In this document: positions 8,046-48,986 of the stretch, piece by piece | How the letters are laid out: each line of letters begins with the position of its first letter | How positions within the stretch are numbered: position 1 is the stretch's first letter | Assembly: GCA_022822275.1 (NCBI GenBank) | Contig: JAJEBZ010000043.1 | Location: forward strand, 1-63,280 | DNA from: Candidatus Poribacteria bacterium | GTDB taxonomy: Bacteria > Poribacteria > WGA-4E > WGA-3G | Direction: 5' to 3' | Length of the DNA stretch: 63,280 nucleotides | The notes under the pieces: generated by a model | Database searches by the model: none | What the model saw: the letters and a program-made list of their open reading frames with translations, nothing else | What the model was told of the DNA's origin: nothing | Position numbers and translations under genes: made by a program

Positions 8046-8859
8046 GAACTCACAAAAAAACTTTTTTGAGAAAGAAGGTTATCTCGTTGTCGAAAATTTA
8101 TTGTCACCTGCAGAGGTAGAGGAATGCCAAGCAGAGATTCAACTACTACATGAGTTTGCCGCAGGGCAAGAATCGGAAGCAGAAAAGGAACGCGCTGATG
8201 TCGCACGCAGGCACGTACAACGTGAACCTTTCGCACAAGACGAAACACAAGGTGACAAATTACCTGTACTGCGAAAAGCAGAAAATACGCGCCAATACTC
8301 AGATGTGTTTAAGAATTTGGCACAACACCCAAACCTTATCGCAGTCCTTCAAAACCTTATCGGAGAAGACCTGATCCTCTTCAGAAGCACATTGATGTTC
8401 AAACCCGCTTACCACGGCTCATCACACGGACTACACCAAGATTCAGCATATTGGCCAATGGAACCACCGAGATTAGTAACCGTCAGTATTGCCCTCAACG
8501 ATGCTAACATAGATAACGGTTGTTTCAAAGTTGTACCGCGTAGTCACTTATGGGGTGTACAAGAGTGGGGTGGAATCGCACGACAACAAGATGCCGAACT
8601 CACCGATCGAAAGGATGTTGCAAAGCAGCAGATGGACGTACCACTTTCGGCAGGCAGCGCGTTGTTCTTCCACAGCCTAATGGTGCACGGTTCCGGCCCA
8701 AACGCTTCACCCCGACCGAGAAACACCGCACTTTACGCATATTTTTCACCAGAAGTCAGGTATGTTACCAAAGACGGTAGAGGTGAGCGCACATTCCCTG
8801 TCGTAGCAGGCCTCGACGGAAAAACCGAAATCACTTTTACTGCACAGAAAGCATCATAG
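8038..8859 (+). CDS. Phytanoyl-CoA dioxygenase (PhyH) family Fe(II)/2OG oxygenase
   Basis: FFEKEGYLVVENLL start, HQD metal motif (GLHQDSAYWP), VPRSH and distal HGSGPN. The ATG overlaps the upstream stop by 8 nt. Confidence 0.8.
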   Translation: MDKNSQKNFFEKEGYLVVENLLSPAEVEECQAEIQLLHEFAAGQESEAEKERADVARRHVQREPFAQDETQGDKLPVLRKAENTRQYSDVFKNLAQHPNLIAVLQNLIGEDLILFRSTLMFKPAYHGSSHGLHQDSAYWPMEPPRLVTVSIALNDANIDNGCFKVVPRSHLWGVQEWGGIARQQDAELTDRKDVAKQQMDVPLSAGSALFFHSLMVHGSGPNASPRPRNTALYAYFSPEVRYVTKDGRGERTFPVVAGLDGKTEITFTAQKAS

Positions 8860-20751: not shown

Positions 20752-21612
20752 ATGAAAAAAGTACGTGATTCTAATGATCCAATGCCACTGGCTCCAGATG
20801 AGAAATTGATGACACCTGAACAAAAGTTCTTCTTTGATCTTCGAGGTTGGATTTTATTACCATCAGTATTATCAGTTTCTGAAATAGAAGATATGAAAGC
20901 GGAAGTGTACGCAGGTGCAAAACACTGTTATCAAGGCGCACTCCAGAATTTACTTGACCATCCTGCTATTGTAGGGATTCTAAACGAAATCCTTGCTGAT
21001 GAACGATTTATCTTTGACGATTGCTACGGCTTTCGGTGTGAGAATTCGATCACAACGGTCAGGAAGCCTGGCTGGACTACCTATTCTGATAGAGGCACTG
21101 CCGTACCACATGTCGTGCGACCTCCGCAACAAGCAAATGCAATGCGGTATCAGGTGGCAGGTGGAAAGATATTTGCAGGACTCACACGTGTGATTTGGGA
21201 ACTTGAAGAGGTGAAAGCTGGACAGGGTGGGACTACTTTTCTAAGTGGGTCTCATAAGGCACATTTCAACTATGGCGGACCGGATCCAAACCGTCCGAAT
21301 ATTAGTGAATCTCCTTGGGAGGATAAAATAAAGGGCATGATGGAGGACTATAGTTGTCCCCCTGGGTCAGTACTTATTTTTACTGAGAGTGTTATACATG
21401 CTACCAACAACTGGACGAACCCCGACAATCCGCGTTGTGCTGTGTTTAATTGTTACAACTCAATCTGGGCTCAATGGTTTCGCTTGAATCTAAGTCATGA
21501 AATAATAGAAAAGATGCCAGAAAAACGCCAATCCTTATTCCGTGGAACTTGGGCAATCGGTGGGGGGCCTGGTGGAAACCGTCAGTATTCATTGGATAAT
21601 ACGACCAAATAA
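20752..21612 (+). CDS. PhyH-like dioxygenase-fold protein, tandem paralog 1
   Basis: EQKFFFDLRGWILLP, LSGSHKAHF, FTESVIHATNNW. The position aligned to HxD reads HVV. Confidence 0.6.
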   Translation: MKKVRDSNDPMPLAPDEKLMTPEQKFFFDLRGWILLPSVLSVSEIEDMKAEVYAGAKHCYQGALQNLLDHPAIVGILNEILADERFIFDDCYGFRCENSITTVRKPGWTTYSDRGTAVPHVVRPPQQANAMRYQVAGGKIFAGLTRVIWELEEVKAGQGGTTFLSGSHKAHFNYGGPDPNRPNISESPWEDKIKGMMEDYSCPPGSVLIFTESVIHATNNWTNPDNPRCAVFNCYNSIWAQWFRLNLSHEIIEKMPEKRQSLFRGTWAIGGGPGGNRQYSLDNTTK

Positions 21613-21649
21613 TTCACCAAATAATTCTAAGACTATTGAAGGAGATATA

Positions 21650-22489
21650 ATGTCAAAAGAAATGTTAAATGATGTACCTGTGCCAATGACTGAAGAACAG
21701 AAGTTTTTCTTTGATCTTCGCGGTTGGATTTTATTACCATCAATATTATCGGACTCGGAAATCGAAGAGATGAAGGGGGAAGTATATGCGGGCGCAAGAC
21801 AAAGTTATCAGGGCTCTCTTCAGAACTTACTTGACCACCCTGCGATTGTTGGTGTTCTGAATGAAATCCTATCTGAAACCCCTTTTGTACGCGATGATTG
21901 CTACGGATTTCGTTGTGAAGGGTCTTTTACCACTGTCCGAGAACCCGGTTGGAGCAAGTCTTCACGAGGTGACAACGGTTTGCCTCACGTCGTGCGTCCT
22001 CCACAACAAGCAAATGCAATGCGGTATCAAGTTGCTGGCGGAAAGATATTCGCTGGATTGACACGTGTTGTTTGGGAACTTGAAGAGGTGAAAGCAGGAC
22101 AAGGCGGCACCTCTTTTCTGAGTGGGTCTCATAAGGCACATTTTAACTATGGCGGACCTGACCCTTACCGTCCGAACATCAGTGAATCACCGTGGGAGAA
22201 TAGCATGCGTGGGATGATGGATGAATATAGCTGCCCACCCGGTTCAGTCGTCATCTTCACTGAAAGTCTTGTGCATGCAGCAAACGACTGGACGAATCCT
22301 GACAATCCACGCTGTGCGGTTTTTAATTGCTACAATTCAATTTGGGCACAGTGGCATCGGTTAAATTTGAGTCATGAAATCATTGAGACGATGCCGCCGA
22401 AAAGACAATCACTGTTCCGCGGGACATGGGCGATTGGGGGCGGTCCTGGTGGAAATCGTGCGTATTCTTTAGAGAATAATACTACGTGA
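21650..22489 (+). CDS. PhyH-like dioxygenase-fold protein, tandem paralog 2
   Basis: Start moved to MSKEMLND (ATG 21650), preceded by GAAGGAGA. By eye, roughly four-fifths identical to paralog 1. Confidence 0.6.
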   Translation: MSKEMLNDVPVPMTEEQKFFFDLRGWILLPSILSDSEIEEMKGEVYAGARQSYQGSLQNLLDHPAIVGVLNEILSETPFVRDDCYGFRCEGSFTTVREPGWSKSSRGDNGLPHVVRPPQQANAMRYQVAGGKIFAGLTRVVWELEEVKAGQGGTSFLSGSHKAHFNYGGPDPYRPNISESPWENSMRGMMDEYSCPPGSVVIFTESLVHAANDWTNPDNPRCAVFNCYNSIWAQWHRLNLSHEIIETMPPKRQSLFRGTWAIGGGPGGNRAYSLENNTT

Positions 22490-27152: not shown

Positions 27153-27239
27153 CTCGGCATCTCTATTTAGAAATGCAAAATTACAGAGAAAACTGATATT
27201 CTCCACAATTCCATAGTCGCAGCGGTTAGTTGCCGGTCT

Positions 27240-27330
27240 TCTTTTTATTTCCCTACGCTGGCATGATCCAGATCAGGTTCAATGGGTGTTTTCTCAGCTC
27301 TTTTTCAGTGAAGAGCACCCCTTAAGTATA
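27240..27330 (-). promoter_or_regulatory. TPP (THI-box) riboswitch aptamer
   Basis: Minus strand reads GGGGTGCTCTTCACTGAAAAAGAGCTGAGAAAACACCCATTGAACCTGATCTGGATCATGCCAGCGTAGGGAA. It contains the conserved CUGAGA, ACCUGAUCUGGAU(A/C)AUGCCAGCG and AGGGAA blocks. Confidence 0.9.
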
Positions 27331-27340
27331 TTACAACTCT

Positions 27341-34268: not shown

Positions 34269-35210
34269 TTACCGATTAGCCAAGCGTTCCACATGTGCCA
34301 CAACAGATTCGGAGATACCCTCTAAACTATACCCACCCTCTAACGCAGATACAACATTGCCAGAAGCAATCTCATCCGCAACATCAAGTACCAAATCCGT
34401 CAGAATTGAAAATCCATCTGCAGTTAGATTGATCTGTGCAAGTGGATCAAGGTAATGTGCATCAAATCCTGCGGAGATAAGAATAAATTCTGGTGAATAA
34501 TCCTGTAATGCAGGTATCAGCACATCTTCAAAAATTGTTATATATTCGTCATCACCAATGTCTGATGACATCTGTACGTTGAGTGTTGTCCCGGGTGCCT
34601 TCACACTGCCCCGTTCATAGTTTGAACCAGTTCCCGGGTAGAGTGGATATTGATGAATAGAAAAGAAGAAAACCGTTTCATCATCGTAAAAAATGTCTTG
34701 CGTGCCGTTGCCGTGGTGTACATCCCAATCCACTATTGCGACCTTTCCAACACCGTGTTCTCTTTGAAGATAACGGGCTGCAATTGCGATGTTATTAAAC
34801 AAGCAAAACCCCATACTATGACCGGGCGTCGCGTGGTGTCCGGGTGGACGCACCATCGCAAAAGCATTTTTCGCTTTCTTAGTAACTACTGCATCGGCAG
34901 CACACAGGACACCACCTGTTGAAAGCAGGGCAATATCATAAGAAGCATGCCCAACCGGGGTATCATGAGTCAGTGGAACTTCTGCTTCACAAAATTGGCG
35001 TATGTGTTCGCTATATCCCTGATGATGTGCATAAGCAATCTGTTCAACACTTGCGGGAGTAGGGTCAAGGTGAATCAGTTGCTCCCAAACATCGCTTTGT
35101 TGGAGTGCAGCAAGACTTGCTCTGAGTCGGTCAGGTCGCTCAGGATGTTCCGGACCAGTGTCGTGTTTCAGGTAGTCTGGGTGATAGATGAACGCTGTTT
35201 TTTGTGGCAT
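34269..35210 (-). CDS. Histone deacetylase family (AcuC/HDAC-like) amidohydrolase
   Basis: RPPGHHA, and the IVDWDVHHGNGTQ signature. Confidence 0.9.
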   Translation of the reverse strand: MPQKTAFIYHPDYLKHDTGPEHPERPDRLRASLAALQQSDVWEQLIHLDPTPASVEQIAYAHHQGYSEHIRQFCEAEVPLTHDTPVGHASYDIALLSTGGVLCAADAVVTKKAKNAFAMVRPPGHHATPGHSMGFCLFNNIAIAARYLQREHGVGKVAIVDWDVHHGNGTQDIFYDDETVFFFSIHQYPLYPGTGSNYERGSVKAPGTTLNVQMSSDIGDDEYITIFEDVLIPALQDYSPEFILISAGFDAHYLDPLAQINLTADGFSILTDLVLDVADEIASGNVVSALEGGYSLEGISESVVAHVERLANR

Positions 35211-35245
35211 GATGTTGGGAATTTTTAAACTAACTTTATCATAAA

Positions 35246-35578
35246 CTATTGAGCGTTACATGCTGTTTTATTTACCGCACGCAGGTCAACTTCTTTACGC
35301 AAGCGTGAATTTACGTCGTTGTCTCGATGGACACAGATACAATTAACACCGTAACTGTTTACACAATACCACTTTTCGTGGTTTGGTATTCTCTCCTTCA
35401 GCGAATCAGTTTGACCAATGTATAGAAATGTGTGTGTGGCCCTCCCGTCCGGGTCTTCATCACGTTTAGAGAAAATATAAACTGCACCGACAGAATTGAA
35501 TATTGTATCCGTAGAGAAAACTTCAAAGGCATAAGTTCCAAATTTGCCTTCAAATGTCGCATCAGATATTTTTCCCAT
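35246..35578 (-). CDS. GIY-YIG-like nuclease domain protein
   Basis: GAVYIF ... FLYIGQTDSLKERIPNHEKW resembles GIY..YIG..R..H/E..N, but with a long spacer. Confidence 0.5.
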   Translation of the reverse strand: MGKISDATFEGKFGTYAFEVFSTDTIFNSVGAVYIFSKRDEDPDGRATHTFLYIGQTDSLKERIPNHEKWYCVNSYGVNCICVHRDNDVNSRLRKEVDLRAVNKTACNAQ

Positions 35579-35708
35579 GTTCCTATACCCTAATTTTGAT
35601 GTTAGAAACTATTCCAATTAAGTATAAAATCATTATACTAAGACAACATTGTAACACATCTAAAACTGATATTCAAGAGGGACTGACAATGTTCTCACAA
35701 TATATTGA

Positions 35709-36071
35709 TTATATGGTAGCAGTAGAATTTACAGACCATTCAAATTCCCAAGTTTGTGAGGCAATAGCAAAAGGTTCGTACTGGCGTATTACCTTGTCAT
35801 GGTTAATACCTAAGGGATTTTCTTCTCTTTTAATTCCTTCCTCTAAGTGTTCAGAAGTAAGTAAAGAAGGCTTAGGTTGAGGAATTACATCTCCATGCTG
35901 TTTTGCGGTTTCTATCCAGCATAAGATGGCATCCCTTCCATTTGCAATCGCTTCGTCAATTGTGTCACCATCTGATATACAACCTGGCAAGTCAGGAAAT
36001 TCAATCAGATAACCTCCTCCTTCTTCTGTAGTTAATATATTTATTTTAGGTGGGTATCCTATTTCATTCAT
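35709..36071 (-). CDS. hicB: HicB family antitoxin
   Basis: GGGYLIEFPDLPGCISDGDTIDEAIANGRDAILCWIETAKQHGDVIPQP. Confidence 0.8.
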   Translation of the reverse strand: MNEIGYPPKINILTTEEGGGYLIEFPDLPGCISDGDTIDEAIANGRDAILCWIETAKQHGDVIPQPKPSLLTSEHLEEGIKREENPLGINHDKVIRQYEPFAIASQTWEFEWSVNSTATI

Positions 36072-36348
36072 GATTTTCCTCCAACTGATCGATCATTGTA
36101 ACAAGTTTTCGAATATATACCGGTTTTATTGGTCGGTGATCAGGAATAGTCAATTTAGTGCCTGAATCGTGTCGTAGTGTGACATGACTGCTTCCACGTT
36201 TTGGACGGTTTATTGATAAACCATATCGCCTCGCAAGTGTTTCAACATCTCTCATCCGCCAATCATTGCGCGGATTCTGTCTCATTCGATCCAATAATTT
36301 ATCTCGGCGCATAGAAATAAATCTCCACACAACATCAATTTCTTGCAC
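36064..36348 (-). CDS. hicA: HicA family mRNA interferase toxin
   Basis: RRYGLSINRPKRGSSHVTLRHDSGTKLTIPDHRPIKPVYIRKL. Overlaps hicB by 8 nt. The likely start is the internal MRRDKL at 36312. Confidence 0.7.
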   Translation of the reverse strand: MQEIDVVWRFISMRRDKLLDRMRQNPRNDWRMRDVETLARRYGLSINRPKRGSSHVTLRHDSGTKLTIPDHRPIKPVYIRKLVTMIDQLEENHE

Positions 36349-36474
36349 CGTTGTCGTGTTGGTAATTCAGTTTAATTCCTTCTTAAATCAATTTATTAAT
36401 GAAGACGATGTTAAAATCGTACCATGTTCAAATGTAATTGTCAACTTAGATTTGTTTATACACACACGATAATC

Positions 36475-36750
36475 TCAACCCCGCATACGTCTAACCCGTG
36501 CGGGGGTGTCATCCCCGAATATCAGACGAAAGAATACAAAGATATGTTCACTATAACCGGAGTTATGTGCATAAGCAATCTGTTCAACACTTGCGGGAGT
36601 AGGGTCAAGGCGAATCAGTTGCTCCCAAACATCGCTTTGTTGGAGTGCAGCAAGACTTGCTCTGAGTCGGTCAGGTCGCTCAGGATGTTCCGGACCAGCA
36701 TCGTGTTTCAGGTAGTCTGGATGATAGATGAACGCGGTTTTTTGTGGCAT
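36475..36750 (-). pseudogene. Duplicated 5' fragment of the HDAC-family gene (codons 1 to ~70)
   Basis: MPQKTAFIYHPDYLKHDAGPEHPERPDRLRASLAALQQSDVWEQLIRLDPTPASVEQIAYAH is nearly identical to the N-terminus of 34269-35210, then diverges and stops. Confidence 0.8.
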
Positions 36751-37030
36751 GTTTTCTTTCTTCGTTGTCTGTAGATTAAGATGCTGTCATTTTATCCAAA
36801 TTCCATTTTGTTTTCAAATACTTTTTGGTTTTCAGAATCATAAGAATTTAAGAAACACTCTTATGAGAGGGGTTTTTAACCCAGACTTGTAGTTTCAGCA
36901 CAAGATAATCCTGTCCATCTGGAAATCCTGAAATCCTGGTTCAGACAATTAACTAAGATACTACGAATATACCAAGTTGATAACCCGTGAAATCTGTGTA
37001 ATCCGCGATTCAGACAAGTTCTGAAAAACC

Positions 37031-37059
37031 TTGCCAAAAGCACGATAAACTGTTAATAT
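37031..37059 (+). promoter_or_regulatory. Predicted promoter of the methyltransferase gene; would give a near-leaderless mRNA
   Basis: TTGCCA, a 17 nt spacer, then TAATAT, ending 8 nt before the ATG at 37068. No Shine-Dalgarno sequence is visible. Confidence 0.45.
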
Positions 37060-37067
37060 CTAATCCA

Positions 37068-38558
37068 ATGAAAAATCAGATTGGACAAGTCTTTACCCCC
37101 ATCAAATGGGCAGAATGGCTCATCAGTAAATGGAATATCTTTGACGCGTGGCTTGACGGCGCACATCTATGCGACCCAACAGCAGGACAAGGTGTATTTG
37201 TCATAGCAATGCTGAAGATCGCGCAAAAAAATGGGGTACCTATTACTGCTGAACGTCTATCACGTCTAACCCTCATTGAGATGGTACCATCTCATCTTGA
37301 GCACTTTCAAAGAAAAGTTCAGCAAGACTACGGTATTAATTTTCCACCACCTCAAATCTATCGCCAAGATATAATCACTGAGACACATAAACGTCAATAC
37401 GACATCCTCATCGGCAACCCACCGTGGGCAAACTTTGGAGATTTACCCGACGGTTACAAAACTCAACTCAAACCCTATTTTATTAGGGAAGGACTTGTTC
37501 AGTATAAACAGCGGACATTGTTAGGTTCCTCTCGTGTTGATATAGCGGCATTGGTACTGAAGGTTGCGTTGGGAAAACTACTAAAACAGAATGGGACTGG
37601 TTATTTCTATCTACCCACATCTTTATTCTTTGGAGATGGTGCACATGCTGGATTTAGAAATTATCATGCAAATCAAAGAATGTTCACAATAGATTCTGTC
37701 CATGAATTTACGACAACCAAAGTGTTTAATGGGGTTAGTACCGCTTACTGCTGTGCAAAATTCCAAATTGATACTAAACAGAAATTCCCATTAACCTATT
37801 TCAAGGAAGTCGATGGAAAGTGGATAGAACATCAAGCAGGACCATTTAAAAATTCTACAGATCCGTGGCGGATCGTTCAAAACCTTGATGAAATCAATTT
37901 AGATGAAAAACTTGAGATTAAGTTATCTTTAGAGCAAAAACCGCGACAAGGTGTGAATACATGTGGGGCAAATCGTGTATTTATTTTTGACGGCAAACCT
38001 AAACATCTACCTGAAGAATTCCTGTTTCCACTTGCAACAAAAGAGATTTGGCGACAACATCAATCATCACCACACAAGTGGATTCTGCTGCCATACTCCA
38101 AGGATACGGGAAAACCGCTATCTTGGGATCAGATCAAAAAAATTGACACATTGAGAAACTATCTACAGAACTTTCAAGGGACTTTACAGCACAGAAAAGG
38201 TTCATTATTACGATCATTTATGAAAAATGGGAATTGGTGGGCATTACTTGGAGTTGGACCTTATGCCTTTGCACCATACAAAGTAATATGGCAAGCTTAT
38301 GGAAAAAACCATTTTACACCAATTGTGTTAAGCAGTATCAACGGGCAAATGTGGCAAGGCAATCAGGCGATGCACGCATTTATACCGTGCTGGCGCGAAG
38401 ACGATGCACATAGGATAAAGACAGCACTTGAAAATCCAGAGATTCCGATGCTTCTACAACAACTAAATGGGGCGGGAAAATGCAACTGGGCACAACCGGG
38501 GAAAATTAAGAAAATATTGTCCTTTAGTGAATCAGGATTTGGGAGTTTGTTCGGATAA
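37068..38558 (+). CDS. N6-adenine DNA methyltransferase, Eco57I/TaqI-like gamma class, with a C-terminal target-recognition region; no nuclease domain
   Basis: GQVFTP (motif X), CDPTAGQGVFVIA (motif I), DILIGNPPWANF (motif IV). Confidence 0.8.
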   Translation: MKNQIGQVFTPIKWAEWLISKWNIFDAWLDGAHLCDPTAGQGVFVIAMLKIAQKNGVPITAERLSRLTLIEMVPSHLEHFQRKVQQDYGINFPPPQIYRQDIITETHKRQYDILIGNPPWANFGDLPDGYKTQLKPYFIREGLVQYKQRTLLGSSRVDIAALVLKVALGKLLKQNGTGYFYLPTSLFFGDGAHAGFRNYHANQRMFTIDSVHEFTTTKVFNGVSTAYCCAKFQIDTKQKFPLTYFKEVDGKWIEHQAGPFKNSTDPWRIVQNLDEINLDEKLEIKLSLEQKPRQGVNTCGANRVFIFDGKPKHLPEEFLFPLATKEIWRQHQSSPHKWILLPYSKDTGKPLSWDQIKKIDTLRNYLQNFQGTLQHRKGSLLRSFMKNGNWWALLGVGPYAFAPYKVIWQAYGKNHFTPIVLSSINGQMWQGNQAMHAFIPCWREDDAHRIKTALENPEIPMLLQQLNGAGKCNWAQPGKIKKILSFSESGFGSLFG

Positions 38559-38716
38559 GACTTCTCTATCAACCGTTATACCAGGAGAAAACACAACTTA
38601 TGCAAAACGAACTCATGCTACTAAAAACTATACACACTCAATAAACACTTTTCACTTGTGAAATCATGCACAATGTGCTAAACTTATTCCAAAATACAAG
38701 GCAGGAGGAGAATTAA

Positions 38717-40024
38717 ATGGTTCAAGCCAAACCCCCACGTGCATTTCATGTCATGACAAAACCCATCGGACCCATCTGCAACTTAGATTGCGAATACTGC
38801 TTTTATCTGGATAAAGAGAAATTATATCCTGAAGCCCGTTCATTTCGTATGCAAGACGATACTTTGGAAAAATACGTCAAGCAGTATATTGAGGCGCAAC
38901 AAGTAAACGAAGTTACGTTTGCGTGGCAAGGTGGCGAACCTACACTGATGGGTGTGGATTTTTTCCGGCAAGTTGTCCGATATCAATATAAATATAGACG
39001 CCCCGGCATGACCATACAGAATACATTCCAAACTAACGCTACACTACTTGACGATGAATGGGGACAATTTTTCAAACAGAACAAATTCCTAATTGGCATA
39101 AGTATAGACGGTCCACCAGAGATACACGATAAATACAGGTATGACAAACGCGGTCGTCCTTCATCACATCAGGTAATACGCGGATTGGAAATATTACAGA
39201 AGCATAAGGTTGACTATAACGTGCTTTGTGTCGTCAACAGACACAACGCTGATTATCCTAAAGAGGTGTATTCATATTTCAAAGGTCTTGGCGTGGAGTT
39301 TATGCAATTTATTCCTGCAGTTGAGCATTTTGATGGCGAAAATGTGTCCCCCCGCTCTGTCACAGCAAAGCAATACGGGAAATTCCTATCCACTATTTTT
39401 GATGAGTGGGTGGTAAGTGACATTGGTAAAATATTCGTCCAAATTTTTGATGTCGCATTAGAAGCCTGGTTGGGGTATAACCCAAGTCTCTGTGTCTTCA
39501 ACGAAACGTGTGGCGATGCAATGGCTATTGAGCATAACGGTGATCTCTATTCCTGCGACCATTACGTCACACCTGACTACTTCATCGGCAACATTGAAGA
39601 GACCTCAATTGCAGACATGGTAGATTCACCGTTTCAACGCAAATTTGGCACTGATAAACGCGACACACTCCCAGAATATTGCAAGAAATGTGAAGTCAAA
39701 TTCGTCTGCAATGGGGGCTGCCCTAAAAATAGAATTATCAAGACACCAGATGGAGAGGAAGGTCTTAACTATCTCTGTGAGGGGTATAAGCATTTTTTCA
39801 AACACATTGATGAACCGATGAAACTCATGGCTGAGGCTCTTCAGGCAGGTAAACCCGCAAATAGTATTATACCCATTGTGCGGGAACGTCAACGAGGAAA
39901 AAGAAGAAGTACTCCTGTTAAAGCACAGACAATTTCAACCTTATCGCAGAAAGTTGGGCGAAACTCGCCTTGCCCGTGTGGCAGTGGACGAAAATACAAA
40001 CAGTGTTGTCTGAATAAAACATAG
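38717..40024 (+). CDS. Anaerobic sulfatase-maturating enzyme (radical SAM + SPASM) with a C-terminal SEC-C motif
   Basis: CNLDCEYCFY radical-SAM cluster, QGGEPTL, SPASM cysteines (CDHY.., CKKCEVKFVCNGGCPKNR), tail SPCPCGSGRKYKQCC. Confidence 0.85.
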   Translation: MVQAKPPRAFHVMTKPIGPICNLDCEYCFYLDKEKLYPEARSFRMQDDTLEKYVKQYIEAQQVNEVTFAWQGGEPTLMGVDFFRQVVRYQYKYRRPGMTIQNTFQTNATLLDDEWGQFFKQNKFLIGISIDGPPEIHDKYRYDKRGRPSSHQVIRGLEILQKHKVDYNVLCVVNRHNADYPKEVYSYFKGLGVEFMQFIPAVEHFDGENVSPRSVTAKQYGKFLSTIFDEWVVSDIGKIFVQIFDVALEAWLGYNPSLCVFNETCGDAMAIEHNGDLYSCDHYVTPDYFIGNIEETSIADMVDSPFQRKFGTDKRDTLPEYCKKCEVKFVCNGGCPKNRIIKTPDGEEGLNYLCEGYKHFFKHIDEPMKLMAEALQAGKPANSIIPIVRERQRGKRRSTPVKAQTISTLSQKVGRNSPCPCGSGRKYKQCCLNKT

Positions 40025-40046
40025 TCAGTACCTGAATTGATTACTT

Positions 40047-41291
40047 GTGAAGGAACACGTTACTACTATGCATCAAATACAGAGTGATCTGGTTTCCTTC
40101 CGTGAATTAGTTCCTGAAATCAGTGACACAGGTTATTTGACACACGCAATTTTCTATTACCCTGCAAAGTTCATACCGCAAGTCGTTAGGTATGCAATTA
40201 ACACTTACACAAAGGAAGGAGACTGGATTATTGATCCGTTTGCCGGTTCAGGAACAGTTGGATTAGAGGCATATTTGTGCAAACGCAACGCAGTATTACT
40301 TGACCTGAATCCGCTGTTGAATCATATTATCCCACTAAAAATATGTCCCTACAAAGAACGATTAAAAAAAGGACATTTATTTGAGCTGTTAGAAGAAATG
40401 GTGCAATCAGCACATCATTTCATTCCTTCATGGTCGAATGTGGATTATTGGTATCCCCCTGAAATGTTGGAAGTACTTTCAAAATACTGGGGTTACATCA
40501 AAAATATTGACCGGTCTCCATATACACAGATTGTTGAATCCGCATTGCTAAAAACCAGTAAACACTTCTCTTATGCAGAACACCGAATACCCAAACTATA
40601 CAGATCAAAACGGAAGAAAAGTTATATTGAAGACCTGCTGAAAACAGAATGGAAAGATAAACTGAAAGAGATGGTTTACACGGTATCTTTAAAAACCTTA
40701 CAAGACATCAACAACTTCATTAGCATAACACCAAAACACAAGAATAGGGTTGAGTACAAAGGGGGAATTGATTCATCCCACTATCAAGTCGGTCATGCAT
40801 GTGATGCACTAATTACATCACCGCCCTATCTACAAGCACAAGAATATATCCGCACAGCAAAAATGGACCTGTTCTGGTTAGGTTTTGAGGAAGAAGAAAT
40901 CCGAAAATTAGCACGACTTGAAATACCGTATCGTAAAGCAGATAGAATCATACAGGCAAAAACATTAGACTCTGTCAGAACCGTTTTAGAACGAAAAGAC
41001 CTTATAAACTTATTAGATTCCTATTTCTGCCACACCATCAACGCACTTGAAAATTCAATGAATTCTCTCAAATCTAACGCAACCGCCTGCATCTTCGTAG
41101 GCAACCCTTCAATTGATGGCATAAAGGTAGAAATCTGGAGAATTCTAATGGAATACTTTACACAACGTGGATTCATATTTGAGAAAGTCTATGAAGATAA
41201 AATAAAAACAAGACAACTGTTTGGGGCAAGGAAAAACAAGAACCCCGATGGAATGAAATCAGAATACTTACTGATATTAAGAAAGGCATAA
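40047..41291 (+). CDS. SAM-dependent N4/N6-type methyltransferase (motif I before motif IV, alpha-like order)
   Basis: YPAKFIPQVVRYAINTYTKEGDWIIDPFAGSGTVGLEA (motif I), then DALITSPPYLQAQEY (motif IV) ~200 aa later. Start is GTG 40047 or ATG 40068. Confidence 0.7.
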   Translation: MKEHVTTMHQIQSDLVSFRELVPEISDTGYLTHAIFYYPAKFIPQVVRYAINTYTKEGDWIIDPFAGSGTVGLEAYLCKRNAVLLDLNPLLNHIIPLKICPYKERLKKGHLFELLEEMVQSAHHFIPSWSNVDYWYPPEMLEVLSKYWGYIKNIDRSPYTQIVESALLKTSKHFSYAEHRIPKLYRSKRKKSYIEDLLKTEWKDKLKEMVYTVSLKTLQDINNFISITPKHKNRVEYKGGIDSSHYQVGHACDALITSPPYLQAQEYIRTAKMDLFWLGFEEEEIRKLARLEIPYRKADRIIQAKTLDSVRTVLERKDLINLLDSYFCHTINALENSMNSLKSNATACIFVGNPSIDGIKVEIWRILMEYFTQRGFIFEKVYEDKIKTRQLFGARKNKNPDGMKSEYLLILRKA

Positions 41292-41300
41292 AGGAGATTT

Positions 41301-42812
41301 ATGGATAACACCAGGCCGAACATATTGCTAATCACAAGTGACCAACAACATTGGAACACATTGGGATGTCTAAACCCAGAAATTCAGACACCCCATTTAG
41401 ATGCGATGGCACAGGATGGTACCCTCTTCCATCGCGCCTACTGTCCAAACCCAACATGCACACCAACCCGCGCCTCCATCATCACAGGAAAGTATCCCAG
41501 CCAACACGGTGCATGGTCCCTCGGAACAAAGCTCTTGGAAAATGAACATACCGTCGGTGAAGATTTCATAGACGCAGGCTACAGGACTGCTCTTGTTGGA
41601 AAGGCACATTTCCAACCCTTGCGCGGTTCTGATGAATTCCCATCTCTGGAATCTTATCCTATTCTACAAGATTTGGATTTCTGGAGAAATTTCAGCGATC
41701 CGTTCTATGGATTCGAGCATGTGGAACTGGCGCGGAATCATGCCGATGAAGCACACGTCGGTCAACATTACGCAATATGGATGGAAGAAAAAGGCTGCAC
41801 AAATTGGCGTGACTATTTTTCACCTCCTACTGGCAACGCTAAGGGACAATACAGAAAATGGCCAATCCCTGAAGAATTTCACTATGATACCTGGATTGCA
41901 GAACGCACAAACGCACTCATGGAACAATATCAGCAGAACGGAGAGAATTTTTTCTTGTGGGCAAGTTTCTTCGATCCGCACCCGAAATACCTCGTGCCTG
42001 AACCGTGGGACACCATGTATGATCCAGAAGCATTAACAGTTCCATCTGTAACAGAAGGTGAACATGACAATAATCCGCCGCATTTCCAGATGACACAACA
42101 ACGCAAACCGGACTTCTCCGAATGGCGTGAAACAGGAAAAGGTATTCACGGCTTCAGGTCCCACCTACGAGATAGGGATGAACTTGCAAAGGACATTGCT
42201 GTCTATTACGGCATGGTGAGTCTGATGGATAAGTATATCGGTGAAATCTTGGGAAAACTTGATGAACTCGGTCTTGCGGATAACACGCTTGTAGTCTTCA
42301 CATCTGACCATGGACACTTCTATGGACAGCATGGACTCATTGCAAAAGGGGCATTTCATTACGAAGATGTGATACGCGTGCCTTTTCTCGTACGGTATCC
42401 GGGTGTTGTTCCTGCAGGAAAACAATCTGACGCATTGCAGACATTAGTAGATTTAGCTCCAACTTTCCTCAGTGCTGCTGGGATTGACATTCCACTACAG
42501 ATGACTGGCGTAGACCAGACATCTGTTTGGTCCGGACAGGAAGAGCATGCTCGCGACCATATCATCGTTGAAAACCACCATGAACCAACAACTGTTCACG
42601 TAAAGACTTATGTGGATGACCGGTATAAACTTACCGTTTATTACAATCGGGATTATGGAGAGCTGTTTGACATGCATGAGGATCCGGGTGAAATCAATAA
42701 TCTATGGAATTCACCTGAACATGCTGAATTAAAAGCAGAGTTAGTGATGAAACTATTGTTCGCGGAAATGGGAAAAGAGTCGCTGCCTGTTCCGAGAACA
42801 TCAGGAGCATAA
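41301..42812 (+). CDS. Cys-type sulfatase (formylglycine-dependent), no obvious signal peptide
   Basis: NILLITSDQQ, CTPTRASIITGKYPSQHG (C-x-P-x-R), FTSDHGHFYG. Confidence 0.9.
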   Translation: MDNTRPNILLITSDQQHWNTLGCLNPEIQTPHLDAMAQDGTLFHRAYCPNPTCTPTRASIITGKYPSQHGAWSLGTKLLENEHTVGEDFIDAGYRTALVGKAHFQPLRGSDEFPSLESYPILQDLDFWRNFSDPFYGFEHVELARNHADEAHVGQHYAIWMEEKGCTNWRDYFSPPTGNAKGQYRKWPIPEEFHYDTWIAERTNALMEQYQQNGENFFLWASFFDPHPKYLVPEPWDTMYDPEALTVPSVTEGEHDNNPPHFQMTQQRKPDFSEWRETGKGIHGFRSHLRDRDELAKDIAVYYGMVSLMDKYIGEILGKLDELGLADNTLVVFTSDHGHFYGQHGLIAKGAFHYEDVIRVPFLVRYPGVVPAGKQSDALQTLVDLAPTFLSAAGIDIPLQMTGVDQTSVWSGQEEHARDHIIVENHHEPTTVHVKTYVDDRYKLTVYYNRDYGELFDMHEDPGEINNLWNSPEHAELKAELVMKLLFAEMGKESLPVPRTSGA

Positions 42813-42898
42813 TTCATTGATGGTAGTTATACATTGTGGTATACTATTACGGAAGTTTTACAATATAAGGCAATTAACCCATACTGCATTTAGAATCT

Positions 42899-43633
42899 TT
42901 GTTGCTTTTAGGAGATGGTATGATGATGCGAAAAATACAGTCTGCACCGACAATCTACTATCCCGAATCAGACGGTAAACCTATGGCAGAAACAGATAAA
43001 CATCGCGATTTAATGGTAGCTTTCATTCAGATGCTGCAATACTATTTCAGGAATAAACCGGTTTATGTTTCGGGAAACCTATTGATGTATTACGAACAAG
43101 GTAATATCAAGAAATGTGTTGCGCCGGATGTCTTCGTCGTTTTTGGTGTATCCAAGAAACGCCGCCGCACCTATCTAACATGGGAAGAAGGGAACACACC
43201 AGATTTTGTTCTGGAACTCGCAAGTCCAAGCACTTTTAGAGAGGATATGCGTAGGAAAAAGGATCTCTATGCGTCTGTTCTCAGAGTCAAGGAATACTAT
43301 ATTTACGATCCTTATGGTGAGATAAACCCGTATTTTATTGGGTTTCGGTTAATAGATGGCGAGTATCAAGAGATAGATTTTATCAATGAGCGTTTAGTGT
43401 CCGAGGTGTTAGATTTGGAACTCGGTGAACATAATGGTATTTTGAGGTTATATGACCCACGCGCTGAACAATGGCTGCAACCCCCACCAGAACGGGTAGC
43501 AGACGCTGAAGAACGCGCACAAACTGCTGAAGAACGCGCACAACAAGAAGCTGCTGCCAGACAAAACCTTGAAGCAGAACTTGCTAAAGCACTATTGGAA
43601 ATTGAACAACTACGTGAAAAGTCGGGTAGTTAA
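42899..43633 (+). CDS. Uma2 (DUF820) family endonuclease with a C-terminal coiled-coil tail
   Basis: YPESDGKPMAETDKHRDLM, APDVFVVFGV, PDFVLELASPST (PD-(D/E)xK-like), then AEERAQTAEERAQQEAAARQNLEAELA. Confidence 0.8.
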   Translation: MLLLGDGMMMRKIQSAPTIYYPESDGKPMAETDKHRDLMVAFIQMLQYYFRNKPVYVSGNLLMYYEQGNIKKCVAPDVFVVFGVSKKRRRTYLTWEEGNTPDFVLELASPSTFREDMRRKKDLYASVLRVKEYYIYDPYGEINPYFIGFRLIDGEYQEIDFINERLVSEVLDLELGEHNGILRLYDPRAEQWLQPPPERVADAEERAQTAEERAQQEAAARQNLEAELAKALLEIEQLREKSGS

Positions 43634-43692: not shown

Positions 43693-44517
43693 CTAATATC
43701 TGCGTTTCCAGTGCCAACTATCACTTCCAGAGATTAGCGGACGAATGTCTTCGGGGAGTGTCTCAATAAAATCTGGGCTCACCTCATTGCCAGGCCATTC
43801 ACGTACCATCGGCGGTGTATAACCAGCAATTAAGATAACCCTTTCCTTATCGCTTCGTATAGCAGTGGTGCTGTGAATAAGTGCTTCCGCAAAAAGTAAC
43901 ACTGAACCCGCAGATGCTTCTACTTGATGGATGAGTTTATCATCAGAGAGTGCAGCTTCGATCATCTCATTCTGTTTCCATGTCAAGCGGTGGCTGCCCG
44001 GAATCACACAAGTTCCTCCGTCATCAGGCCCTACATCAGTCAGATATGCCAACGTTTTCACAAAGATACAATGAAATTTATCCTGTTCCATATAGGTACC
44101 CCAACCGTGCTTTGTGCCACGATGGAAACCGGTTGGGTTGTAACGTCGGTTGTGAAGTTCCTCTAAATCTTGATCTGGATTCCTTCTGTTGATAATAGCC
44201 TCTGTCTCTTCAAGGCGGACTTTACCACCGACGACCTCCTCCACAAGCGGAACAAGTTTAGGATGGGCAGCATATTCCAGCAACGCAGGATCGTATTCAA
44301 CGAGATTCCCCATGTGTGCATGGTGTTCACCACGCCAATTGCAATATACTCTTGTGCTGTCAAGATTCTCAGACGCTTTAATTCTGTAAAGCGCGTCCTT
44401 CATTCGCTCAATTTCATCAGTGGTAAGGACGTTCGCCAACAGAACAAACCCATATATATCAAAGTGCAACCTTTGTGCAGATGTGAGATGCACATTTCCA
44501 TTGTCCATAGCCATCAC
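43693..44517 (-). CDS. PhyH-family Fe(II)/2OG oxygenase-like protein with HRG in place of HxD
   Basis: LTSAQRLHFDIYGFVLLANVL, GFHRGTKHG, VIPGSHRL, EALIHSTTAI. Confidence 0.7.
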   Translation of the reverse strand: MMAMDNGNVHLTSAQRLHFDIYGFVLLANVLTTDEIERMKDALYRIKASENLDSTRVYCNWRGEHHAHMGNLVEYDPALLEYAAHPKLVPLVEEVVGGKVRLEETEAIINRRNPDQDLEELHNRRYNPTGFHRGTKHGWGTYMEQDKFHCIFVKTLAYLTDVGPDDGGTCVIPGSHRLTWKQNEMIEAALSDDKLIHQVEASAGSVLLFAEALIHSTTAIRSDKERVILIAGYTPPMVREWPGNEVSPDFIETLPEDIRPLISGSDSWHWKRRY

Positions 44518-46209: not shown

Positions 46210-46971
46210 CTAAATTAAGGTTATAAGTTTTTCGTTATTAGTGATTGAATTTACTAAACAATAATAGATGTATCTATAACTATTAATTTTACCTGAATAT
46301 ACAGGATAAGAAATTTGAATTTCCAACCATTCTATTCCCACGCACGCCCTGAGACCTTCAACAAACACTTGAAAACTATTCGATCTATTACGACTCGGTT
46401 TCATGTGATGTGCTATGTTTTGTGCGACTTCAATTTTTGGAATTTTTTCAACATAATCTCGAGTTTTTATTAGTAAACGTTCTAATGCTTCGTACGTCCC
46501 ACCAGTAATCGCATCGGGATCTCGGTACTTTTTCTGATATTGAAGGTTTTTGGATACACTGGGATATGCTTCATGTAATGCCTCTATGTCACCAAAAAAC
46601 CATGCCTCTAATTCCTCTATGGCTAATCGATTCACTACTTGAAAATCACCGTTTGGAAGAGTCCTTGATTTTGTCACAAGACCTGATTGATGCGCTGCAT
46701 TTTCTAATTGTGTCTTGAGTTCTTGGCAATTTTTTCGATCTTCATCAATTAGCACCACAATCCGCCAATCAGCTGGCATCCATTTTGAGTAACCTTTCAA
46801 CCGTGCCGAAAGTTTTTTTAGCAAATCTGGTTTTCCGTTAAAAACATGAAAGTTATAACTGACATCATCGGGAAGTATCTTAGGTAGTATTAACTTTAAT
46901 GTGACTTCGGCAGAACGTTCTTCCAATAGGAATTCAATATGCATGTTTTTATACCTTTGGACCTCCTGCAT
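46210..46971 (-). CDS. DUF4276-like protein (possible Toprim-like effector), partner of the upstream ATPase
   Basis: [52 protein letters not shown]. Start is either 46971 (23-nt overlap with the ATPase) or MHIEF at 46944 (4 nt after its stop). Confidence 0.6.
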
Positions 46972-48157
46972 TAGTCAAAGGATCTCCGAATTCAAAGTAC
47001 CCTTCCATCCAAAGTTCCCCCAACTTCGCCCCTTCGTCCAAAAACTCCTTGATTCCCTGCATGTCAGAGGTGCGTTTACATACCGTAAATCCGTTATCAT
47101 CTCGATAAAGCACCCATACCTCATTTGCACGAAATTCGTTAACAAAGTGCGGCGAATGGGTTGTAATCATGAGTTGGGACAATGCTGTAACCTTATGACA
47201 TTCCTCAGCTAATCCGGATAACAAGCGAGGGTGTAGATAGTTTTCAGGTTCTTCAATACCAATTAACTGCGGTGGTTCTGGGTCATATAATAAGGTCAAA
47301 TAAGACAACATTTTCAGCGTTCCATCAGAAGCAAACTTTGCCAAAATGGGATGATCAAACGGTGCGTCTTTTATTTGTAACAATAACCTTCCATCTGCCA
47401 TGATTTCAGCATCTACTTTCTCTAAACGAGGGACTCTTTGAGATAATATTGATAGAATCTTCTTCAAACGCGGTTGATATTGCTCTTTTAAATATTGAAT
47501 AACATTTGGCAAATTATCACCTGATTCGGATAATCTTTCTTGAGGTCCGGCTTCAGGAACACCTCGTGTCGCATCTGCAGAAAGATAGGAAAGGTGCCAT
47601 CCTGTAATAAAGCGACGCAATGCACTGACACGTGGATGCCTCGCTAATTGTCCCAATGTGCTTACAGCAAGCATTGATGGGTCATCAAGTTGTTCATTGA
47701 TTCGCTCTTCTCCTTCATCAGGTGTTTCACCACCTATTACACGACCAGCACCTTCTTGAAAATCAAGAAAGCGAAAAGGTTTTCCTCTACTACCACGTCG
47801 CCATTGCAACCATTCAGCATCAACATAAGGTCCTTTTTTGCCTTCATAAATAGATAAATGGTAAGTGATAATTGGTGTCTTAGGTTTTTCACGATATTTC
47901 AGTTCAAATTCAATTGGTTCATTGCTTCCGCGTGTCCTTAACTCTTTAAAACGACCTCTCTTGTCCCATGCTCTTCGCATCCCCTCCGTGAAACATTCTG
48001 CAAGAAATGCAAAGACATCAAAAAGCGTTGATTTTCCGCTACCGTTTGAACCTAAAAAGGCTGTTAATGGTGTGATTTTTTTTAATTCTACATCACGTAA
48101 TGCGCGATAATTTTTCACTCGTAATGATTCAATGCGAGGTACAGTTTGTTGTGGCAT
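46949..48157 (-). CDS. ABC-type (AAA_21/AAA_15-like) ATPase
   Basis: [28 protein letters not shown] (Walker A), [13 protein letters not shown] (Walker B / D-loop), MITTHSPHF (H-loop). Confidence 0.8.
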
Positions 48158-48206: not shown

Positions 48207-48986
48207 TTACGGCATCCAGATATTCCACTCTCCTTTTTTCTGCCATGCGCGGCAATCATAGCACAGGCACATAAAACGAATTGCGAAACGAGGCGAAGTA
48301 TCAACATTCATCGTACCAGCATGCGGCAATAGGTGATGAAAAAAGAGGACATCTCCTTGTTTAGCGACAACTTCCATCGGTTCACCTAAATCCAACTCTG
48401 TAAACTGGGCACGCATATCATGAACATGGTCAGAAAACTTTGGATTCTTTTTCCGAAATGCCCGAATCCGTTCTGGTCCTTCAGGCCAAATCATTGTCGT
48501 GCCTTGATGCTGCTTTGCATCAGTAAGATATGTTAAGCTGGTCGCTCGGAATGTGCCAGGGTCCAATCGTAAATCCCGAAAGTCTCCATCGAGATGGGGT
48601 GTAGGAGGTTTCCACTTCGCATTTATTGGAAATTGATTAATTGCCCAAATACCATCAGGTTCATGACTCTTACAGTGTGGGATAGACGGATATTTTTGAG
48701 CAAGTTGTTTTAGGACATCAAGATAATCTGGTGTGCAACATGCTAACACGTCTGGATGTGTTAAACCGTATAGTTCAACCCGCTTCCCTTTTGCGAGTTT
48801 TTCTATATAGAAACCTGTGAGAAATGGCCGTTTGAAGTGTTGCCATGTATCAGGAGCATCAGCATCCATACCCAGCGAATGCCACATCGCTTGTTCCGCT
48901 TTTTGGATAGTGTCAATCGGAATCAAACCAGAAAGTAGTAAAAATCCCTGTTCGTCAAAGTGCCTTAGTTGTGAAGTAGATAGCAT
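48207..48986 (-). CDS. PhyH-family Fe(II)/2OG oxygenase
   Basis: LSTSQLRHFDEQGFLLLSGLI, PHLDGDF (HxD), FFHHLLPHAGTMN. Confidence 0.7.
   Translation of the reverse strand: MLSTSQLRHFDEQGFLLLSGLIPIDTIQKAEQAMWHSLGMDADAPDTWQHFKRPFLTGFYIEKLAKGKRVELYGLTHPDVLACCTPDYLDVLKQLAQKYPSIPHCKSHEPDGIWAINQFPINAKWKPPTPHLDGDFRDLRLDPGTFRATSLTYLTDAKQHQGTTMIWPEGPERIRAFRKKNPKFSDHVHDMRAQFTELDLGEPMEVVAKQGDVLFFHHLLPHAGTMNVDTSPRFAIRFMCLCYDCRAWQKKGEWNIWMP

Follow-up and report, generated by a model that had tools for sequence, protein, structure and literature searches.

A cluster of five genes, all on the + strand, lies in a 63,280-nucleotide (nt) stretch of the chromosome of a member of Candidatus Poribacteria, which are sponge symbionts (assembly GCA_022822275.1, contig JAJEBZ010000043.1, positions 1 to 63,280; the whole stretch is called the window here). 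It codes, in order, for an N6-adenine-type DNA methyltransferase (MT1), a radical S-adenosylmethionine (SAM) sulfatase maturase (anSME), a second DNA methyltransferase (MT2), a Cys-type sulfatase, and a Uma2-family protein (Table 1). The first-pass annotation, made from the window sequence, offered two readings of this unusual assortment: remnants of restriction-modification (R-M) genes nested into a sulfatase operon, or an integrated modification system in which a methyltransferase and a sulfatase loosely echo the PglX and PglZ proteins of bacteriophage exclusion (BREX) systems. Comparison with loci of relatives (labelled L plus a number) and with metagenome runs X1 and X2 makes it very likely that the cluster is a chromosomal mosaic and not a single system, composed of a sulfatase-maturase pair, two orphan methyltransferases, and a Uma2 insertion. 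The methyltransferase and Uma2 genes arrived, moved, and were lost independently of each other in relatives, and a mosaic therefore accounts for the locus better than a new DNA-modification system does.

The five predicted open reading frames (ORFs) are all borne out, and the gaps of 158, 22, 9, and 86 nt between them match exactly when computed from the ORF coordinates; profile searches (Pfam, TIGRFAM-type models, and PADLOC) likewise reproduce all five domain assignments. Two of the gaps are refined by the choice of start codon. The conserved MT2 start is ATG 40068, on which orthologues and a database protein of 407 amino acids (aa) agree, and this widens the anSME-MT2 gap from 22 to 43 nt; for Uma2, translation is likely to start at ATG 42920, preceded by AGGAG, which widens the sulfatase-Uma2 gap from 86 to 107 nt. 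Both MT2 junctions are spanned by independent contigs of the source metagenome run X1, so the gene order is not an assembly artefact, and the order anSME-MT2-sulfatase is seen in six assemblies besides the window. The runs that contain the region are sponge and reef metagenomes, assembled from short-read DNA, and none is RNA. Co-directionality of five genes, expected by chance in about 1 in 16 cases, is weak evidence that they form one unit. Promoter and terminator scans return counts of 22 and 6 against shuffled expectations of 20.9 and 6.2; with these counts at chance level, the evidence for an operon is limited to the spacing. Rfam and tRNA scans give no match inside the five-gene cluster. 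Its flanks are chromosomal housekeeping genes (pheS, pheT, ubiE, PPK2, and ABC transporters), and the other neighbours in the window include genes for HDAC, HicAB, PhyH, and LamG-like proteins and a HEC-01 pair.

Table 1. Positions of the genes and motifs discussed in the text (window coordinates unless a locus label is given)
Feature	Position	Strand	Basis or remark
MT1, solitary gamma-class N6-adenine-type DNA methyltransferase, 496 aa	37068..38558	+	PF07669, PADLOC IIG module
MT1 motif I, SAM-binding, D36-P-T-A-G-Q-G-V-F44	37173..37199	+	invariant columns
MT1 motif IV, catalytic, N117-P-P-W120	37416..37427	+	invariant columns
anSME, radical SAM/SPASM, 435 aa	38717..40024	+	TIGR03942, PF04055, PF13186, PF02810
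anSME cluster motif C21-N-L-D-C25-E-Y-C28 (CX3CX2C)	38777-38800	+	translation
SEC-C zinc-binding motif, anSME C-terminus	39959-40012	+	PF02810
MT2, solitary alpha-class N4-cytosine/N6-adenine DNA methyltransferase, 407 aa	40068..41291 (ORF from GTG 40047)	+	PF01555, PADLOC MTase_II
MT2 motif I, D-P-F-A-G-S-G-T	40233..40256	+	unchanged across 26 sequences, a 34%-identical Firmicutes homologue among them
MT2 motif IV, S-P-P-Y	40818..40829	+	TSPPYLxAQEY invariant in 26-sequence alignment
Ribosome-binding site of sulfatase, AGGAG	41292..41296	+	immediately 3' of MT2 stop codon
Cys-type (formylglycine) sulfatase, 503 aa	41301..42812	+	PF00884 171.8 bits, SGSH_C 96.7 bits
Sulfatase formylglycine motif C53-T-P-T-R57	41457-41471	+	translation; extended C53-T-P-T-R-A-S-I-I-T-G63
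Uma2-family (PD-(D/E)xK-like) protein, coiled-coil tail	42920..43633 (ORF from TTG 42899)	+	PF05685
374-377-aa protein, candidate restriction endonuclease	L006:8809-9939 (also L010, L015, L021); L114:5001-6134, L115:5001-6134, L116:5001-6125		upstream of MT2-family methyltransferase

The maturase and the sulfatase were initially described as an ordinary functional pair, and this is borne out by the equivalog-level score of the anSME (524.7 bits on TIGR03942, above the cutoff of 349.45) and by the formylglycine motif of the sulfatase. The anSME also matches models for the radical-SAM domain (PF04055, 57.8 bits) and for the SPASM domain (PF13186, 44.8 bits; TIGR04085, 68.1 bits). The sulfatase has the features of an S1 enzyme, with the sulfatase fold, a C-x-P-x-R motif, and an LTG-like stretch; its PF00884 match spans residues 6 to 395, Phosphodiest is also among its Pfam matches, and it scores 252.5 bits on the arylsulfatase model NF010322, which is under that model's cutoff. 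It was also said to be without a signal peptide, and a Pfam match that already begins at residue 6 does indeed leave no room for one. Ratios of nonsynonymous to synonymous substitution rates (dN/dS) in pairwise comparisons are 0.04 to 0.07 for the anSME and 0.02 to 0.03 for the sulfatase, and the two genes are directly adjacent, with no gene between them, in L026 and L027. They appear to be the sole functional pair in the cluster, predicted to work as a unit with or without MT2.

Known systems of the anSME/AtsB type include AtsB-AtsA of Klebsiella, anSMEcpe of Clostridium perfringens, and ChuR of Bacteroides. The window pair resembles these in the radical-SAM CX3CX2C motif and SPASM domain of the maturase, in its equivalog-level score, and in the sulfatase alongside it with C-x-P-x-R and LTG-like residues, but it differs in that the maturase ends in a SEC-C motif, the sulfatase lacks a signal peptide, and, in the window lineage, a methyltransferase gene separates the two. 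The SEC-C tail is also present in 50 to 58% identical anSME homologues from soil and sediment metagenomes, with alignments that reach query residue ~430. Paralogous genes for PhyH-family Fe/2-oxoglutarate dioxygenases lie at window positions 43693-44517, 48207-48986, 20752-22489, and 8038-8859, and one PhyH gene immediately follows the sulfatase gene in every related locus, a conserved adjacency that hints at a common catabolic role.

Synteny in relatives had been proposed as a check on the cluster, and the set of five families proves not to be conserved across related loci. MT2 orthologues with 65 to 88% identity are present in 22 Poribacteria species of a species-level genome collection, in which almost all matches are from Poribacteria. 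The order anSME-MT2-sulfatase is found in two of these species loci (L001 and L018); the remaining 20 have the conserved order Gfo/Idh/MocA oxidoreductase, Rieske, cytochrome b, MT2, amidohydrolase, and nitroreductase. Four further assemblies (L107, L108, L109, and L110, with MT2 proteins 78 to 82% identical) are organized as MT1-anSME-MT2-sulfatase, with a transposase between MT1 and anSME in L107. Because anSME-MT2-sulfatase is seen in just seven assemblies, the arrangement defines one sub-lineage, and the spacing between MT2 and the sulfatase is 9 to 12 nt in all seven of its MT2-bearing assemblies. X1 and X2 contigs that match the cytochrome b-MT2 locus of L005 (80% likeness) include a collinear contig at a depth of ~60x, which represents another Poribacteria population, and low-depth contigs that are unassigned; the depth of the window organism in its source metagenome is ~9x.

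Loss of MT2 can be followed within the same group. L026 and L027 are organized as MT1-(LamG)-anSME-sulfatase-PhyH, with neither MT2 nor Uma2 and with anSME-sulfatase spacers of 88 and 63 nt, respectively; their sulfatases are 92% identical to that of the window, and the L026 sulfatase is 97% identical to that of the MT2-bearing L107. A tree of anSME, sulfatase, and PhyH sequences has the groups (window, L018, L001), ((L107-L110), L026), and L027, so that L026 is the sister of the MT2-bearing L107-L110 and nested among MT2 bearers. The last 41 nt of L107 MT2, stop codon included, align to the L026 spacer with a Smith-Waterman score of 54, compared with a null of 18.4 +/- 2.1 (maximum 27 in 300 shuffles). 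The nested position of L026 together with this 3' relic indicates that MT2 is ancestral and was deleted in L026, and alignment of MT2 to the L027 spacer gives a score equal to the null. In L018, a 2-nt insertion splits the MT2 frame at about residue 280. The first-pass annotation regarded absence of the methyltransferases from orthologous anSME-sulfatase loci as the mark of unrelated insertion; such absence is found for MT2 in L026 and L027, and for MT1 in L018 only.

MT2 was first read as an alpha-like SPPY methyltransferase between the anSME and the sulfatase, and its motif order, DPFAGSGT and then TSPPY, is the alpha arrangement. The protein (414 aa if read from the upstream GTG) matches PF01555 at 49.4 bits and PADLOC MTase_II at 104.6 bits, the latter over residues 27 to 412 and thus over its full length. 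The sole match in a sequence search of the PDB is a DNA cytosine-N4 methyltransferase, limited to motif I, and PF01170 (RlmKL-like, 24.8 bits) and TIGR01177 (23 bits) match weakly, over no more than the motif I region. The SPPY motif suggests N4-methylcytosine (m4C) or N6-methyladenine (m6A) as the product. Pairwise dN/dS values for MT2 are 0.09 to 0.20, and the enzyme most likely methylates DNA as an orphan.

The origin of MT2 is indicated by a protein of 374 to 377 aa (here the 376-aa protein) whose gene separates cytochrome b from MT2 in four species of Poribacteria (L006, L010, L015, and L021). Two complete Microcystis genomes and a deltaproteobacterial metagenome-assembled genome contain homologues with 54 to 59% identity, which are followed, after a 9-nt gap or with a 20-nt overlap, by a methyltransferase of 422 to 437 aa that is 60 to 61% identical to window MT2 over its whole length. 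L008 retains a 64-aa relic of the C-terminus of the 376-aa protein just upstream of MT2. A two-gene module that recurs in three phyla and codes for a DNA methyltransferase as one of its products bears the signature of a type II R-M pair, and the 376-aa protein, which has the invariant block LDxD...K..IQxRSRDDTGGTTAK and no match in Pfam, PADLOC, or the PDB (by sequence), is probably an undescribed family of type II restriction endonuclease. MT2 homologues resemble type II R-M methyltransferases in lying directly 3' of a conserved protein and in the patchy cross-phylum spread typical of R-M modules. The difference is that the window holds the methyltransferase alone and that the partner, a candidate nuclease, belongs to no described family. 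In the window, tblastn finds nothing significant for the 376-aa protein and MT2 is flanked only by anSME and sulfatase, so that window MT2, with its methyltransferase motifs I and IV in place and no adjacent cognate endonuclease, is an orphan. Among the 120 best database matches of the 376-aa protein (down to 53% identity), none lies on large contigs of the MT2-bearing sub-lineage. A 325-aa ORF that follows the Firmicutes MT2 homologue (L023) was considered as a relative of the 376-aa protein and is unrelated, with no Pfam match. An uninterrupted 758-codon ORF in L021 (8948-11224) runs from a nucleotidyltransferase-like N-terminal region of ~350 aa into MT2, and may represent either a fused gene or two in-frame neighbours. 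Microcystis has been described as carrying many R-M systems (PMC8262939).

MT1 leads the cluster, and its description as an Eco57I-like NPPW methyltransferase holds, with a weak PF07669 match (28.6 bits) and a PADLOC REase_MTase_IIG match (92.6 bits) that covers only positions 603 to 739 of the 1100 in that profile. DPTAGxGxF and GNPPW are invariant in 26 MT1 sequences, and pairwise dN/dS values are 0.08 to 0.17. MT1 is no less widespread in Poribacteria than MT2, with more than 100 clusters at 67 to 88% identity, and the family comprises ~128 clusters, at 50% identity, of full-length stand-alone relatives (~500 aa; E<1e-30). Like Eco57I and other type IIG enzymes it has a gamma-class methylase module, but it has no nuclease domain; type IIG enzymes combine nuclease, methylase, and target recognition in ~1000 aa, whereas MT1 is 496 aa long, with motifs from residue 36. 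The pheS-pheT-ubiE-HDAC block lies upstream of MT1 in the window, L001, L024, L110, L111, and L112, and the downstream genes vary: in part of the phylum anSME comes next, in some cases after a LamG gene and in some accompanied by a sulfatase; L111 and L112 have the order LarA-UbiA-AP endonuclease-another sulfatase, and in L025 the next gene codes for BacA. The fixed upstream neighbour and variable downstream genes imply that MT1 is vertically inherited and that its adjacency to anSME is local synteny. In L018, MT1 is replaced by a different type II methyltransferase of 260 aa together with a 546-aa ORF.

The spacer between HDAC and MT1 (35211-37067 in the window; also in L024, L107-L109, L111, and L113) is an insertion hotspot across Poribacteria, and its contents, according to genome, are HicAB, a 1041- to 1043-aa type IIG R-M enzyme (PADLOC, 794 bits), GmrSD, and AAA_35 or nSTAND1 ATPases. 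The type IIG enzyme, which is beside MT1 in L111 and L113, was considered as a partner of MT1 and rejected, since the two have only catalytic motifs in common. The 5' end of the histone-deacetylase-family gene recurs in the window as a 210-nt direct repeat (35002-35211 and 36542-36751, 94% identical), and between the two copies lies a cassette (35212-36541), absent from L001, that codes for HicA, HicB, and a 110-aa GIY-YIG-like ORF. An X2 metagenome contig skips exactly 1540 nt (35160 to 36701), and the HicAB cassette is thus polymorphic in natural populations. A motif, AATCC-N(2-5)-TTCAGACA, is present twice just upstream of MT1 (36932-36947 and 37000-37016) and recurs between genes in L001, L024, and L025; in the window, metagenome depth at the motif is ~500x versus ~9x around it, which marks it as part of a dispersed repeat.

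Solitary DNA methyltransferases derived from R-M systems include Dam, CcrM, and the orphan methyltransferases of cyanobacteria. Like the Dam/CcrM type of orphan, MT1 and MT2 have no partner endonuclease in the window, are conserved across the lineage, and are under purifying selection. Both are probably active orphan enzymes, given this selection (dN/dS 0.08 to 0.20), and purifying selection together with invariant motifs argues that both are functional genes in most genomes; the constraint on both is weaker than that on the anSME-sulfatase pair. In contrast to those orphans, the MT2 family still includes members, in a minority of Poribacteria as well as outside the phylum, that lie beside an intact candidate R-M partner, and MT1 and MT2 are unrelated to Dam and CcrM apart from shared motifs (the CcrM model match is 16 bits). 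The initial suggestion of R-M remnants nested in a sulfatase operon accordingly holds in its essentials for MT2, which is nested there and is the methyltransferase half of an endonuclease-methyltransferase module, without its partner here. The word remnant suits neither MT1 nor MT2, both of which are intact, phylum-conserved, and under purifying selection, and MT1, anchored to the pheST-ubiE-HDAC block, is not nested. Orphan methyltransferases have been described in Synechocystis (PMC6105098).

The Uma2 gene closes the cluster as originally described, with a PF05685 match of 62.9 bits (cutoff 27) over residues 30 to 169. It is present in two of nine related loci (the window and L018), and neither the gene nor a relic of it is found in L001, L026, L027, or L107-L110. 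Two promoter-like sites lie in the sulfatase-Uma2 spacer (42817-42885), in consensus scans that are at chance level overall. Uma2 thus appears to have been inserted recently and alone, and to have promoter-like sites of its own.

Two further features of the window lie outside the cluster. The - strand at 46210-48157 encodes a DUF4276 protein and an AAA_21 ATPase that score 289 and 558 bits on the PADLOC models for HEC-01, a candidate defence pair; besides the window, L018 and L027 carry it, and L001 and L026 lack it. A thiamine pyrophosphate riboswitch (27231-27332, - strand; RF00059, 66.6 bits) is located upstream of NMT1/THI5-like and FAD-oxidoreductase genes.

BREX systems are composed of a PglX methyltransferase and a PglZ phosphatase together with BrxA, BrxB, BrxC, and BrxL. 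If the five genes were an integrated DNA-modification or defence system of this kind, the methyltransferases would mark self DNA, and foreign DNA would be the target of the matured sulfatase and Uma2. In favour are the shared direction and tight spacing of the genes, the predicted cytoplasmic location of all five products, and the many defence and toxin-antitoxin genes nearby (HicAB upstream, the HEC-01 pair downstream), but the likeness, an Eco57I-like adenine methyltransferase module and an alkaline-phosphatase-superfamily enzyme on one strand, is superficial. The sulfatase, at 171.8 bits on PF00884 and with a canonical formylglycine motif, matches zero PADLOC families and gives no PglZ signal, and no BrxA, BrxB, BrxC (PglY), or BrxL gene lies within ~10 kb, which leaves the proposed PglX-PglZ echo with no counterpart at the locus. 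MT1, at 496 aa compared with ~1200 for PglX, has no PglX match, its best PADLOC matches being type IIG and type II methyltransferases, and the only PglX-type match of MT2 is to PglXI (22.8 bits, over 44 residues of motif I). The five genes are also not a syntenic set: close relatives with 92 to 97% identical sulfatases have neither MT2 nor Uma2, MT2 is missing from L026 (where it left a relic) and from L027, L018 has a frameshifted MT2 and other genes in place of MT1, Uma2 is confined to two of nine loci, and the usual neighbours of MT2 across most of the phylum are respiratory genes. Synteny largely refutes the idea of an integrated system, to which we give almost no credence. That MT1 or MT2 methylates RNA or protein, for example the sulfatase or anSME, is also very unlikely. 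Enzymes with (N/D/S)PP(Y/F/W) motifs do include HemK and rRNA N2-methylguanosine (m2G) methylases, the weak PF01170 and TIGR01177 matches of MT2 point the same way, and structure models of both methyltransferases are too poor for assignment; but MT2 has full-length type II DNA methyltransferase matches of up to 104.6 bits and only a DNA cytosine-N4 methyltransferase as its match in the PDB sequence search, MT1 matches type II and IIG profiles, MT2 is paired with a candidate endonuclease in three phyla, and both genes are mostly located away from any sulfatase.

A regulatory connection is a further possibility: with MT2 in the operon, orphan DNA methylation and the expression of the sulfatase regulon could be coupled, in either direction, through an epigenetic link selected in the sub-lineage. 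The arrangement and its 9- to 12-nt junction, overlapping the ribosome-binding site, persist in seven assemblies at a synonymous divergence (dS) of ~1.3 to 1.5, the dN/dS of MT2 is 0.09 to 0.20 with invariant motifs, and both methyltransferases are phylum-conserved like core genes. However, the strongly constrained anSME and sulfatase genes were retained when MT2 was cleanly deleted (L026) or frameshifted (L018), and the same MT2 orthologue sits in a quite different operon context in 20 species, so such a link seems unlikely. Several points nonetheless count against the interpretation of the cluster as a mosaic with orphan passengers. Retention of MT2 between anSME and sulfatase across dS ~1.3 to 1.5 means that the position may be of benefit. 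A genome scan finds one MT2 locus per assembly, which would favour relocation over duplication and is the sole evidence on move versus copy. The endonuclease role proposed for the 376-aa protein is drawn solely from its position and patchy distribution. AlphaFold2 models made from shallow Poribacteria-only alignments have mean predicted local distance difference test (pLDDT) values of 51.4 for MT1 and 53.5 for MT2, which are too poor to use.

A history of the mosaic can be proposed from these comparisons. The anSME, by virtue of its family, would oxidise Cys53 of the sulfatase (C-T-P-T-R) to C-alpha-formylglycine in the cytoplasm, and the matured cytoplasmic sulfatase would hydrolyse sulfate esters, as its family membership also predicts. 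MT2 would derive from a mobile, type II R-M-like two-gene unit, as the methyltransferase that follows the 376-aa candidate endonuclease; within Poribacteria this unit, or more often the methyltransferase alone, is located 3' of Rieske and cytochrome b. The sub-lineage would go back to an ancestor in which the methyltransferase gene alone came to occupy the anSME-sulfatase spacer, 9 to 12 nt before the sulfatase start. Because the MT2 stop codon is followed by AGGAG and, 9 nt on, by the sulfatase ATG, and this junction is conserved, MT2 is most likely read through with the pair, probably from the anSME promoter. It would be kept by purifying selection yet be dispensable to the pair, one descendant having deleted it and another having frameshifted it. 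MT1 would be a second solitary methyltransferase, transmitted vertically across the phylum and fixed beside pheST-ubiE-HDAC, and its adjacency to anSME would reflect neighbourhood synteny in part of the phylum only. Uma2 would be a late insertion, independently promoted.

Sponge symbionts are enriched in sulfatases, which are thought to serve in the use of sulfated host polysaccharides (PMC5735121). A bolder proposal is that MT1 and MT2 are Dam/CcrM-like housekeeping epigenetic enzymes with roles in regulation or in replication and repair, with MT2 wired to the anSME-sulfatase operon and the 376-aa protein a new endonuclease family; we regard this combination as improbable, but if it were true, genome methylation would track the use of sulfated host glycans. 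The mosaic interpretation removes a false lead, in that an apparent radical-SAM/sulfatase DNA-modification system would be an ordinary sulfatase-maturase pair with passengers. The analysis also brought to light, as a by-product, the insertion hotspot upstream of MT1. As leads, it offers two conserved orphan methyltransferases, whose motifs long-read sequencing of sponge metagenomes could reveal, and an unclassified candidate restriction enzyme common to Poribacteria and Microcystis. MT2 itself may serve as a worked example of an R-M methyltransferase that outlives its endonuclease, turns into a phylum-wide orphan, and moves within the chromosome, with a dated insertion, the relic of a deletion, and a frameshift that can all be read from wild populations of uncultured sponge symbionts.

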